From an uncultured bacterium (GTDB taxonomy: Bacteria > Patescibacteriota > Minisyncoccia > Phycocordibacterales > GWA1-40-21), in assembly GCA_963804975.1 (NCBI GenBank), contig CAWDSG010000002.1, forward strand, positions 277,015 to 341,014: DNA of 64,000 nt. The letters are read 5' to 3'. A program made the position numbers and the translations under genes. Below the pieces are notes generated by a model. The model was not told where the DNA came from. It ran no database searches and saw only the letters and a list, made by a program, of their open reading frames with translations. This document shows positions 35,093 to 36,107 of the stretch, piece after piece; the first letter of the stretch is position 1; each line of letters begins with the position of its first letter.

Positions 35093-35131
35093 CCTGTTGA
35101 TAAAAACCCCGAGGTTAAACCTCGGGGTTTC
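35093..35131 (+). terminator. rho-independent terminator (hairpin-family copy with CCTGTTGATAA 5' extension) after rpsI
   Basis: CCTGTTGATAAAAACCCCGAGGttaaaCCTCGGGGTTT. Its inverted copy lies at 36068..36107. Confidence 0.7.
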
Positions 35132-35232
35132 ATATTTGACTTTATCGGATTTTAGAGTAATGTCATATACAGAATCTACAGGATTTTCAGTTCTTAGACA
35201 TCAAAATCTCATTTTTCAGAAGGAGATAAAAA

Positions 35233-36003
35233 ATGCTTGACACAAAGTTCACCGATAAAGATAAAGAAATTGCCAAAAGATTATGGGTGGCTATTGATTT
35301 TGCAAGAGACCCCAAATTCGATCAATCACCGGCAACTTTACCGTATTATTTAACGAAGATGATCAATAATTTTTCGGATATTGGCGTCGTTTTGAAATTC
35401 AATTCACTGCTTCGCTTCTGGGGATGGACTCTGTATAATTATTTGAAAAAACAGCATGATTTTAAAATATGTGCTGATTTCAAACTGAATGATGTTTCCG
35501 ATGCTATGCGCGACGATGCCTCTTTTTGGACCGTTCTTAAACCTGATGTAATGACAGTAATGTGTTCGTCAGGCAAGGATGGCATGAAGGCAGTGAGGGA
35601 AACATTTTCCAATGAGACGAAAATTTTTGCCATACCGGTACTAACAGGTTATACGAAGGAAAATCATTACAAAACTTTTGGCTGCAACATTCGCGATGCT
35701 ATTTTGCGTTTTGCCGGCCAAGCTGCCGAAGCGGGGATAGACGGGCTTATCATGGCTCCAAAAGAGATCTCGATAATCCGCAAGGAATTTAAAGATCGAT
35801 TTATCATTACGGCGGCTGGGATTCGTCCTCCGGGGTTTTCTGTTCCTAACGATGATCAAGGTTTTGACAGGATTGGAACTCTGGAAGAAGCGGTTTATCT
35901 TGGAGCCAATAATTTTATTGTCGGAAGATATATTACCAGGTCGGATAATCCGAGGGAAACGGCAATGGCAATGATTCAAGAAATCAAAGATATGGTTTCC
36001 TGA
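35233..36003 (+). CDS. orotidine-5'-phosphate decarboxylase-fold protein (PyrF-like; HPS-like not excluded)
   Basis: WVAIDFARD and DFKLNDVSDA (DxKxxD), then a C-terminal GIDGLIMAPKEISIIR...ITAAGIRPPG...DQGFDRIGTLEEAVYLGANNFIVGRYIT...DNPRETAMAMIQEI pattern typical of OMPdecase-family TIM barrels. SD GAAGGAG upstream. Confidence 0.5.
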   Translation: MLDTKFTDKDKEIAKRLWVAIDFARDPKFDQSPATLPYYLTKMINNFSDIGVVLKFNSLLRFWGWTLYNYLKKQHDFKICADFKLNDVSDAMRDDASFWTVLKPDVMTVMCSSGKDGMKAVRETFSNETKIFAIPVLTGYTKENHYKTFGCNIRDAILRFAGQAAEAGIDGLIMAPKEISIIRKEFKDRFIITAAGIRPPGFSVPNDDQGFDRIGTLEEAVYLGANNFIVGRYITRSDNPRETAMAMIQEIKDMVS

Positions 36004-36067
36004 GGAATTTCTGAATGAAATTTTTGGATTCGGGCCGCGCGGGTTTTTGACGCGCGGCTTTTTTGTT

Positions 36068-36107
36068 TATTCCAAACCCCGAGGTTAAACCTCGGGGTTT
36101 TTATCAA
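36068..36107 (+). terminator. rho-independent terminator; inverted copy of the 35093..35131 element
   Basis: AAACCCCGAGGttaaaCCTCGGGGTTTTTATCAACAGG is the reverse complement of copy 1 apart from loop orientation. Confidence 0.7.

Follow-up and report, generated by a model that had tools for sequence, protein, structure and literature searches.

Two palindromic hairpins that bracket a single pyrF-like gene are probably ordinary members of a terminator family, placed on either side of a variable gene slot by local palindrome-driven rearrangement, and not mobile-element termini. Together they give the appearance of a 38-nt terminal inverted repeat, which looks like a by-product of such rearrangement, with the 11-nt inverted copy at its outer edge unexplained. 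The window, by which we mean the whole stretch of DNA that was analysed (64,000 nucleotides), was compared with relatives from the Candidatus Paceibacterota, of which L122 is the closest. The features of the locus are as follows.

34626..35081, + strand: rpsI (ribosomal protein S9; Pfam Ribosomal_S9, E = 4.7e-39; 84% identity to the L122 orthologue)
35093..35103, unstranded: left tail CCTGTTGATAA, exactly reverse-complementary to the box at 36101-36111; no other part is truly inverted
35104..35130, unstranded: left 27-nt hairpin, 12-bp stem, loop TTAAA, where the terminator of the rpsI operon would lie (fold -21.8 kcal/mol, z = -5.3)
35131..35232, + strand: upstream region of the pyrF-like gene, with a TTGACT -35-like hexamer (35135-35140), conserved blocks and a GGAG ribosome-binding site
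35233..36003, + strand: divergent OMP-decarboxylase-family (pyrF-like) gene, 256 aa, Pfam PF00215, the cargo between the hairpins
36034..36066, + strand: intrinsic terminator belonging to the pyrF-like gene itself, GCCGCGCG-loop-CGCGCGGC, then TTTTTTGT
36074..36100, unstranded: right 27-nt hairpin, + strand sequence the same as in the left copy, TTTTT tract after it
36101..36115, + strand: right tail, box TTATCAACAGG(TAAT), a conserved sequence ahead of the LCAT-like gene
36140..36148, + strand: extended -10-like element TGATATTAT, aligning with TGCTACTAT in L122 and TGATATGAT in L128, the probable promoter of the LCAT-like gene as assigned from sequence
36179..39343, + strand: LCAT-like gene, encoding a 1054-aa secreted protein (Pfam LCAT + Bact_surface_Ig-like; alpha/beta hydrolase and Ig-like domains)
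592..621, unstranded: family hairpin, loop flipped to TTTAA, stem with a single mismatch, 3' of a + strand ORF ending at 588
55859..55898, unstranded: family hairpin with loop TTCCA and tail TTTTTGTCAACA, after ORF 53173-55845
40488..40502, + strand: solitary box TTATCAACAGGTAAT without a hairpin, immediately 5' of an extended -10-like TGATATAAT and the ATG (40519) of a PD-(D/E)XK gene

Geometry of the bracketing repeat

A repeat search of the window placed the two arms at 35093-35130 and 36074-36111, each 38 nt long, 943 nt apart and complementary at 37 of 38 positions (97%). The bracketing repeat is confirmed and lies far above chance expectation: the hairpin CCCCGAGGTTAAACCTCGGGG, with up to three mismatches allowed, occurs at four window sites (595, 35107, 36077 and 55863) and not once in shuffled sequences. 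The sequence-only reading, which had reported near-exact inverted copies around an OMP-decarboxylase-fold gene and nothing else, was right on both counts, 35233-36003 being the sole long ORF between the arms. Its left arm start (35093) also holds, and its right arm (36068-36107) was 4-6 nt off.

The 27-nt core, AAACCCCGAGGTTAAACCTCGGGGTTT, is a perfect palindrome and is consequently a direct and an inverted repeat simultaneously. The cores at 35104-35130 and 36074-36100 agree at 27 of 27 positions as direct repeats, and the 38-nt inverted repeat fails to pair only at the central loop base. The + strand loop sequence is TTAAA in both, which makes the cores direct copies and leaves just the 11-nt outer tail as truly inverted; this direct orientation depends on one loop base. 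The layout is tail, core, insert, core and inverted tail. Exact occurrences of CCTGTTGATAA in the window number three, at 35093 (+), 36101 (-) and 40488 (-).

The hairpin as a terminator-like family

The core hairpin has a 12-bp perfect stem with seven G-C pairs and a 3-nt loop, is flanked by an A-tract on one side and a T-tract on the other, and lies 11-25 nt past stop codons, with fold energies of the tested hairpin segments ranging from -21.8 to -42 kcal/mol (z = -4.9 to -7.3). Hairpins of the CCCCGAGG/CCTCGGGG type stand 3' of stop codons at four window places, following rpsI (the final gene of an rpoA-rplQ-rplM-rpsI run, whose stop codon precedes the left arm by 11 nt), the pyrF-like gene, ORF 53173-55845 and the ORF ending at 588. 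In a custom hairpin scan this type was the commonest of the terminator-like hairpins in the window (4 of ~9). Related hairpins had previously been noted near 592-621 and 55860-55892, and family members do lie at 592-621 and 55859-55898.

A TTTTT U-tract accompanies the right copy and the copy at 55859. Read in the rpsI direction, the left copy has a poor U-tract, TTTCATATTT (TTT, then CATATTT), and it has TTTTT on the other strand. A consensus terminator scan missed both flanking hairpins, since it takes their A/T ends as part of the stem. Rfam returned no family at gathering score in the window, the sub-threshold hairpin matches being terminator look-alikes.

The family extends well past this genome. 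Searching genome contigs with the pattern AACCCCGAGG-N3-7-CCTCGGGGTT, we found the AACCCCGAGG...CCTCGGGGTT stem in more than 117 genome stretches among the matches listed (the source genome is not one of these), in unrelated phyla, with varied loops and A/T-rich flanks. Loops are genome-specific, reading TTAAA/TTTAA in three window copies and CTCCA/TGGAG in six L124 copies, and density differs as well, with 4 copies in the 64-kb window (of a 606-kb genome) versus 6 in 15 kb of L124. Judged by structure and placement, the two bracketing elements appear to be paralogous copies of the lineage's stock bidirectional Rho-independent terminator, with termination itself predicted from sequence. The proposal of a dispersed terminator repeat family is supported by four copies behind stop codons, the commonest hairpin type in the window and recurrence in relatives. 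In the Patescibacteria, one terminator hairpin seems to be reused, with loops particular to each genome.

As a separate observation, a 21-nt palindrome is inserted in frame into housekeeping genes of this genome, and looks more interesting than the hairpin pair.

The box and the 11-nt tail

The right tail belongs to a box that aligns upstream of the orthologous LCAT-like gene as TTATCAACAT in L122, TTACCAACAG in L124 and TTATCCACAG in L128. The LCAT-like protein is 35% identical to that of L122, and orthologues follow the slot in L122, L124 and L128. This four-genome alignment argues that the TTATCAACAGG tail is a conserved upstream sequence of the LCAT-like gene and not a transposon end. No inverted left tail is present beside the rpsI hairpin in L124, L126 or L128, and the left tail is for this reason a derived feature of this genome. 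The sequence-only reading had also placed a copy of the tail upstream of a Cas4-like gene; the copy exists, at 40488-40502 and not at 40486-40500.

Taking the box for a -35 element was rejected: it reads TTATCCACA in L128 and TTATCA-N17-TATAAT in L122, and the distance from it to the -10-like element is not the same at 36101 as at 40488 and varies among genomes. A DnaA box was considered alongside, and the function assignment was dropped given the inconsistent spacing to the -10-like element. A hairpin with a TTTTTRTCAACA tail also occurs at 55859-55898, beside an unrelated gene, where the tail TTTTTGTCAACA resembles the right tail TTTTTATCAACA; this copy gives some indication that hairpin and box could move together.

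The pyrF-like gene

The bracketed gene product scores 80.2 bits against Pfam PF00215 (OMPdecase; cut-off 27, E = 2.8e-22) and falls below both NCBIfam pyrF equivalogs (108 vs cut-off 193, and 81 vs cut-off 92). Its ADFKLND, VLKFN and IVGRYI segments align with motifs of the solved PyrF structures 3ru6 and 27hh, and the catalytic DxKxxD, the strand 2 lysine and the GR phosphate-binding loop of PyrF are all matched. A homologous-protein search returned the protein itself and one match at 30% identity, and a full HMMER search nothing above 37%. Both missed a syntenic orthologue in L122 that is 52% identical (next-best relatives, 36-37%) and was located only via the neighbours of RpoA homologues; given this orthologue, the gene is not an orphan.

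The leader of the gene (35131..35232) shares 72% identity with the corresponding stretch ahead of the L122 orthologue, compared with 65% for the coding DNA, and has no Rfam match. The gene's own terminator is likewise kept after the L122 orthologue, as GGTCGCGCG...CGCGCGGCC. Composition gave no sign of a foreign origin, at a GC of 0.407 for the gene vs 0.399 for the window. Synteny in L122, a conserved leader, an own terminator and typical GC together argue that the pyrF-like gene is not recent mobile cargo.

A variable slot downstream of rpsI

What lies between rpsI and the LCAT-like gene varies: the window and L122/L123 have the pyrF-like gene there, L124/L125 have hemerythrin in reverse orientation, and L128 has no gene. 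In L126, L129, L130, L251 and L252, rpsI is followed by grpE-dnaK-dnaJ. The empty site of L128 runs from the rpsI stop through AAAATTCCCCGAGATATATCTCGGGGAATTTT, ATTTATCCACAG and TGATATGAT to the LCAT-like ATG, with one hairpin and the TTATCCACAG box before that gene. In L124/L125 the reversed hemerythrin gene is bracketed by 99-nt direct composites of the hairpin. A CCCCGAG-type hairpin stands 3' of rpsI at the matching position in L124, L126 and L128, and a hairpin also adjoins the box in L124 and L128. From these comparisons, the rpsI-LCAT-like interval is indeed a variable slot, whose cargo is hairpin-bracketed in two genomes.

L122 carries the pyrF-like gene at the matching place and in the same orientation, without either flanking hairpin; its junction at the gene, TTTGTTTATCAACA, is hairpin-free. 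Relative to L122, the right hairpin is a clean 34-nt indel between TTTAT direct repeats, which could reflect either the insertion of a small element or a deletion in L122 stimulated by the palindrome. The copies absent from L122 may have been lost there, or the duplication may post-date the arrival of the cargo. As to whether the gene is missing or elsewhere in relatives, the slot is empty in L128 and has hemerythrin in L124/L125, and the gene is syntenic in L122. Taken together, a hairpin that is the commonest terminator of the window and a gene that is syntenic in L122 without the copies are largely the outcome that the sequence-only reading had itself set against a cassette.

Proposed origin and competing explanations

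In the reading that we favour, the ancestral interval would have held a single module of hairpin, TTAYCMACAG box and promoter, such as L128 still shows. In the window's lineage, the slot would then have received a pyrF-like gene that was self-contained, bringing a promoter-like leader and a terminator of its own, and direct duplication of the 27-nt hairpin would have left one copy on either side, presumably when the cargo arrived. The left copy would keep the ancestral position beside rpsI and serve as the rpsI operon terminator; the right copy would keep the ancestral position beside the box, where it may back up the pyrF-like gene's terminator and insulate the next gene. The 11-nt left tail would be a secondary copy of the right box, made most likely by a replication template switch or else by short-tract gene conversion in inverted register. 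Such inverted-register copying is possible because a perfect palindrome lets each arm pair with either strand of the other copy. Template switching at quasipalindromes is known to make inverted repeats more perfect (PMC7202029).

Among the alternatives, we consider it unlikely, if worth serious weighing, that the hairpin, possibly with its TTTTTRTCAACA tail, is a small non-autonomous REP/BIME- or MITE-like element that inserted twice independently in opposite orientations and also acts as a terminator. The clean 34-nt indel against L122 is what such an insertion would leave, loops are uniform per genome (three window copies, six L124 copies), the hairpin pairs of L124 form BIME-like composites, a similarly tailed hairpin lies at 55859-55898, and a 21-nt palindrome clearly inserts, in frame, in the same genome. 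Yet the LCAT-like gene is preceded by the conserved tail in L128 and L124, and even in hairpin-free L122, which marks the tail as a resident promoter-region sequence; the box stands alone at 40488, the post-rpsI hairpin is positionally conserved in three other genomes, copies number just four per 64 kb, no RAYT/transposase gene occurs among the window ORFs scanned, and palindrome-stimulated deletion in L122 explains the indel equally. A different proposal, which we rate as quite doubtful, is that the post-rpsI palindromic terminator is a gene-capture hotspot in this Paceibacterota clade, at which cargo integrates at the hairpin and the hairpin is duplicated by an undescribed palindrome-specific mechanism; cruciform cleavage and an unknown hairpin-recognising recombinase are candidates. 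The pyrF-like gene here and hemerythrin in L124/L125 would be such cargo, and the slot would then amount to a minimal cassette system with no adjacent integrase gene. Improbable, in our estimate, is a pre-existing 49-nt perfect palindrome (CCTGTTGATAA-hairpin-TTATCAACAGG) that was split by the 943-nt pyrF-like cassette for example through cruciform cleavage or hairpin recombination, with duplication of the 27-bp core. It would produce the observed order of tail, core, insert, core and inverted tail exactly, with cores matching 27/27 as direct repeats, and would agree with the single hairpin between rpsI and box at the empty L128 site and with the direct hairpin repeats around the L124 cargo. 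No relative, however, has an inverted box to the left of the rpsI hairpin, and the same gene at the same hairpin-free junction in L122 would need two later losses.

At first sight the locus, where a 38-nt repeat (97% inverted) encloses one gene and relatives differ in what the slot contains, suggests a transposon-like or invertible cassette (35093-36111) with 38-bp terminal inverted repeats and a recombinase encoded elsewhere, and the earlier proposal of terminal inverted repeats around a cassette was of this kind. We now regard such a cassette as scarcely credible, and the transposon reading was rejected. The truly inverted part is just 11 nt, and the target-site duplications sought beside both copies proved absent: the flanks are TTTTCTG on the left and TAATTTT on the right, with none abutting the arms, and the nearest direct repeat, the 7-nt AATTTTC, is offset by 2 nt and 1 nt from the ends. 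No transposase, integrase, RAYT (Y1) or other recombinase gene was found among the window ORFs scanned, a search found no tRNA gene usable as an integration site, and the window has no second copy of the whole tail-hairpin-gene-hairpin-tail unit, whose sole internal ORF is the OMPdecase-like gene. Nor do relatives show presence or absence of the unit as a whole, L122 having the gene without the repeats and L128 being empty but with one hairpin and the box. The gene is syntenic and in the same orientation in L122, and with its own promoter-like leader and terminator it would not be switched by inversion. Just as hard to credit is an origin of the inverted tail in faulty assembly or sequencing at the palindrome. 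Palindromes do yield chimeric reads and assembly-graph breaks, and contigs of the Logan assembly of run ERR10755942 break within both hairpin copies (the end of L001, the 1006-nt L002 and the start of L003). Against this, L001 has the full left tail joined to rpsI, L002 and L003 hold the right junction, and the junction sequences are the same as those of the window, in an assembly that is perhaps made from the window's own reads; moreover, the rpsI-pyrF-LCAT order is seen independently in L122/L123.

Returning to duplicated terminators and local rearrangement as the preferred explanation, the locus indicates that a near-perfect 38-bp inverted repeat around one gene can come from two palindromic terminator copies plus a short flank, and it cautions that mobile elements called from repeats alone can mislead. 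The 3' end of the rpsI operon is a hotspot for accessory-gene swapping. If the hairpin itself promotes swapping, it would offer these very small genomes a simple, recombinase-poor way to gain genes. At present, the finding is of minor importance.

Comparison with known systems

The pair invites comparison with several classes of repeat. REP/BIME elements of proteobacteria are likewise short extragenic palindromes at 3' ends, multi-copy and uniform per genome, and the inverted pairs with spacer in L124 recall them. Here, in contrast, there are 4 copies per 64 kb, the palindrome is perfect and not imperfect, no RAYT gene was seen in the window, and the host belongs to the Patescibacteria (candidate phyla radiation). 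MITEs such as the Correia elements of Neisseria share the small size, the location at gene boundaries, the inverted ends and a possible terminator activity, but here no target duplication abuts the arms, there is no internal element sequence, and an ordinary gene is bracketed.

The terminator pairs formed by the uptake sequences (USS/DUS) of Pasteurellaceae and Neisseria (Kingsford et al. 2007, PMC1852404) resemble the present hairpins in that a repeated short motif is paired in hairpins at operon ends. Uptake sequences have hundreds to thousands of copies, many within genes, whereas in the window the 8-mer here is never single and never inside genes. A DNA uptake sequence was accordingly rejected, and with it the DUS-like part of the sequence-only reading, CCCCGAGG/CCTCGGGG being found solely inside the four window hairpins.

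Integron cassettes with attC sites resemble the locus in that palindromic sites flank one gene and the slot is filled differently in different relatives. The present locus differs in that no intI was found, there is no cassette array, and the gene has its own promoter-like leader and terminator; its hairpin is perfect, without the extrahelical bases or R/L boxes of attC, and the closest relative has the gene without the sites. An integron cassette was rejected on the perfect palindrome, the lack of an integrase among the ORFs scanned and the gene's own leader and terminator.

Quasipalindrome template switching (PMC7202029) is a known route by which sequence flanking one hairpin arm is copied, inverted, onto the opposite side; at this locus, such copying would have had to bridge hairpins 970 bp apart, or to precede the insertion. 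The closest likeness is to bidirectional intrinsic terminators, with which the hairpins share a G+C-rich perfect stem, a short loop, an A-tract upstream and a T-tract downstream, placement at operon ends and a stem sequence present in identical form in many unrelated bacteria. They depart from ordinary intrinsic terminators in having several near-identical copies per genome with genome-specific loops, and in the extra 11-nt inverted flank carried by one copy pair.

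Geometry and gene content of the repeat

A repeat search resolved the hairpins on either side of the pyrF-like gene as a 38-nt inverted repeat (35093-35130 and 36074-36111; 97% complementary, spacing 943 nt), matching the sequence described in the sequence-only reading with slightly corrected coordinates. That the repeat brackets a single pyrF-like gene, as claimed there, was borne out: between the arms, 35233-36003 is the sole long ORF (Pfam OMPdecase E = 2.8e-22). The left element begins 11 nt past the rpsI stop codon.

Features of the locus, in window positions
Upstream of the repeat: rpoA, rplQ, rplM, rpsI
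35093-35130: left copy, outer tail (11 nt) then hairpin core (27 nt)
35131-35232: conserved leader of the pyrF-like gene
35233-36003: pyrF-like gene
36034-36066: separate terminator of the pyrF-like gene itself
36074-36111: right copy, hairpin core then inverted tail
Downstream of the right core: box TTATCAACAGGTAAT (starting at 36101 and including the right tail), then an extended -10-like TGATATTAT
Downstream of the box: gene for a secreted protein (1054 aa) with LCAT-like and Ig-like domains

The 27-nt core, AAACCCCGAGGTTAAACCTCGGGGTTT, is a perfect palindrome, so the two copies (35104-35130 and 36074-36100, 27/27 identical) form a direct and an inverted repeat at once. Over its 38 nt the inverted repeat has a single mismatch, at the central base of the loop. 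On the + strand the loop reads TTAAA in both copies, indicating that the cores are direct copies and that true inversion is limited to the 11-nt outer tail, in the order tail, core, 943 nt, core, inverted tail. With up to three mismatches, the hairpin CCCCGAGGTTAAACCTCGGGG occurs in the window at 595, 35107, 36077 and 55863 (none in shuffled sequence), and the tail CCTGTTGATAA has exactly three copies, at 35093 (+), 36101 (-) and 40488 (-). A Logan assembly (run ERR10755942) contains the same junction sequences, with contig breaks falling inside both copies.

The window ORFs scanned comprised housekeeping genes (rpoB, rpoC, dnaG, rpoD, pyrG, alaS, mnmA and others) and an ABC transporter array, with no transposase or integrase among them; Rfam and tRNA scans gave no matches.

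The hairpin as a predicted terminator

The hairpin folds strongly (z-scores -4.9 to -7.3), is flanked by an A-tract and a T-tract, and lies directly after stop codons. Its four copies make up 4 of about 9 terminator-like hairpins in the window and are the commonest type there, which agrees with the earlier proposal of a dispersed terminator family; the accompanying idea of a DUS (uptake-sequence)-like distribution is ruled out by the confinement of CCCCGAGG and CCTCGGGG to these four hairpins within the window. Across 185,579 species genomes, AACCCCGAGG-N3-7-CCTCGGGGTT was found in at least 117 stretches. The matches listed came from Firmicutes, Actinomycetota, Proteobacteria, Planctomycetota, Bacteroidota, Patescibacteria and other phyla, and had varied loops and mostly A-rich/T-rich flanks. 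Because the stem is spread over many phyla with different loops, it is by itself no evidence of common descent. The left copy occupies the position of a terminator for the rpsI operon, with a weak U-tract in that direction. Judging from structure and placement, the right copy probably serves as a second terminator behind the one that belongs to the pyrF-like gene, and shields the next promoter.

The pyrF-like gene

The encoded protein belongs to the OMP decarboxylase family, scoring above the Pfam cut-off and below the NCBIfam equivalog cut-offs, and has an intact set of catalytic motifs (DxKxxD, lysine and GR). Besides the orthologue in L122, a locus from a related genome, its best relatives share 36-37% identity; the gene of one of these adjoins a phosphoribosyltransferase gene on an unrelated contig. 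The most likely identity of the gene, whose GC content is ordinary, is a divergent pyrF. The leader (35131-35232) shares 72% identity with L122, against 65% for the coding DNA, with extended stretches of identity, GGAGTAATGTCATATA and CAGTTCTTAGACATC among them, and has no match in Rfam; it may be a regulatory leader.

The rpsI-LCAT interval in related genomes

RpoA homologues placed the host in Candidatus Paceibacterota, and the corresponding locus was obtained from nine related genomes.

Content after rpsI in relatives (RpoA identity in brackets)
L128 (83%): empty interval with a single CCCCGAG...CTCGGGG hairpin, ATTTATCCACAG, a -10-like element and the LCAT-like gene
L122/L123 (89%, closest): different terminator, small minus-strand ORF, pyrF-like gene, LCAT-like gene
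L124/L125 (85%): hairpin, small minus-strand ORF, bracketed reversed hemerythrin gene, ACCAACAGG, LCAT-like gene
L126, L129, L130, L251, L252 (82-84%): grpE-dnaK-dnaJ

In the window, L124, L126 and L128 the hairpin behind rpsI is of the CCCCGAG type; the remaining five genomes have another one there. The sequence-only reading suggested checking whether relatives lack the pyrF-like gene: at this locus it is missing in L128 and L124/L125 but in place in L122 (52% identity), there without a CCCCGAGG hairpin. The conserved leader and a terminator of its own are both retained by the L122 gene, and TTTGTTTATCAACAT lies directly 3' of that terminator. In L124 (9423-10055; same in L125), a pair of 99-nt direct repeats encloses the hemerythrin gene, each consisting of a hairpin, a TTTTTATACAGTTTCAAAAATT spacer and a flipped hairpin, an arrangement present in two independent assemblies.

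Upstream of the LCAT-like gene, TTATCAACAGG in the window aligns at the same place with TTATCAACAT in L122, TTACCAACAG in L124 and TTATCCACAG in L128, so the right tail is resident upstream sequence of that gene. An inverted box left of the rpsI hairpin was present in none of the relatives compared, so the left tail is derived in the window genome. The box TTATCAACAGGTAAT also stands alone at 40488-40502, before a PD-(D/E)XK (Cas4-like) gene. There (40488-40521) it adjoins an extended -10-like TGATATAAT ending 6 nt before the ATG, a layout that suggests a leaderless transcript and an upstream motif common to the PD-(D/E)XK and LCAT-like genes. A box-like TTTTTGTCAACA follows the hairpin at 55859; spacing between box and -10-like elements is inconsistent.

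Proposed history of the interval

The ancestral interval would have been one hairpin-plus-box module, as it still is in L128, and the space between rpsI and the LCAT-like gene is a variable slot. The window retains both ancestral adjacencies, rpsI/hairpin and hairpin/box, with the pyrF-like gene in between, which argues for duplication of the hairpin in direct orientation; in L124, the same bracketing surrounds a different gene. A simple crossover would not account for the 11-nt inverted tail, which would need DNA synthesis; it probably arose by a template switch or short-tract conversion at a palindrome, a known process whereby the flank of one arm is copied inverted to the other side (PMC7202029). 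Against L122, the right hairpin shows up as a clean indel of 34 nt with a direct TTTAT repeat on either side; it may have been lost from L122 in a deletion stimulated by the palindrome, or gained in the lineage of the window. L122 has neither hairpin: it may have lost both, or the duplication may have followed the arrival of the gene. It seems improbable that the hairpin serves as a hotspot of gene capture.

Other features of the window

The LCAT-like protein (36179-39343) shares 35% identity with its L122 counterpart (10242-13766), compared with 82% for the signal peptide and 89% for RpoA; it is a fast-evolving surface protein adjoining the variable slot. Beyond it, 39344-40361 holds two ORFs (143 and 157 aa) without a clear family match (GC 0.29 vs 0.40 for the window); relatives too have the first of them, at 142-144 aa, behind their LCAT-like gene. 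At 9100-19480, two permeases and two ATPases are interspersed among seven paralogous Peripla_BP_6 solute-binding proteins, a branched-chain-amino-acid-type ABC transporter array unusually large for a genome of ~0.6 Mb. GC skew over 1-12000 is negative at ~4-10 kb and then positive, with a cumulative minimum at ~9-10 kb beside a strong hairpin (9006-9039); this minimum may reflect only the composition of a gene for a 2354-aa surface protein, not a replication origin.

A palindrome distinct from the terminator hairpin, CCTGCCTNCCGGNCAGGCAGG (21 nt), has five window copies, all on the + strand (21388-21408, 25892-25912, 31679-31699, 50527-50547, 59063-59083) and all inside housekeeping genes (mnmA, alaS, rpsK (S11), dnaG and pyrG). 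Throughout the window it is read in one codon phase, encoding L-P-(T/A)-G-(Q/K)-A-G, and in S11 and AlaRS the copies are clean 7-aa/21-nt insertions unique to the window genome among the relatives aligned. It was found in 0 of 130 fetched loci, which cover 7 of the 9 relatives' loci, and in at least 120 JGI metagenome contigs. Among the matches listed, flanks are unconserved, hosts include unrelated proteins (class I aminoacyl-tRNA synthetases, LigA, UvrD), and the L-P-x-x-Q-A-G phase is used by 41 of 58 copies in ORFs of at least 600 nt. A literature search for the sequence or its peptide found no mention. The palindrome behaves like a tiny insertion element that keeps the reading frame; Rickettsia palindromic elements are comparable, although this one has only 21 nt. 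It merits investigation in its own right. In the window, ychF seemingly lies in two ORFs, an MMR_HSR1 part (19524-20042) and a YchF C-terminal part in another frame (20071-20622). The break (TGA at 20040) falls within a short palindrome, CTGCC-CTTGA-GGCAG, similar to the arms of CCTGCCTNCCGGNCAGGCAGG; the split could reflect a decayed, frameshifting copy of that element, a pseudogene or an error of assembly.

Comparison with known systems

The element failed the defining tests of a transposon or MITE and those of an integron cassette. The terminal-inverted-repeat cassette suggested in the sequence-only reading is not supported: only 11 nt are truly inverted, and no transposase occurs among the ORFs scanned. 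Unlike uptake-sequence terminator pairs (PMC1852404), the window motif is never single. Like REP/BIME sequences, the hairpin is a multi-copy extragenic palindrome, uniform within the genome and sometimes paired, and the 99-nt repeats of L124/L125 combine members of this hairpin family into a BIME-like composite; unlike REP/BIME sequences, the hairpin has a low copy density, and no RAYT gene was seen among the window ORFs scanned. The best classification for the element is as a lineage-specific family of predicted bidirectional intrinsic terminators.
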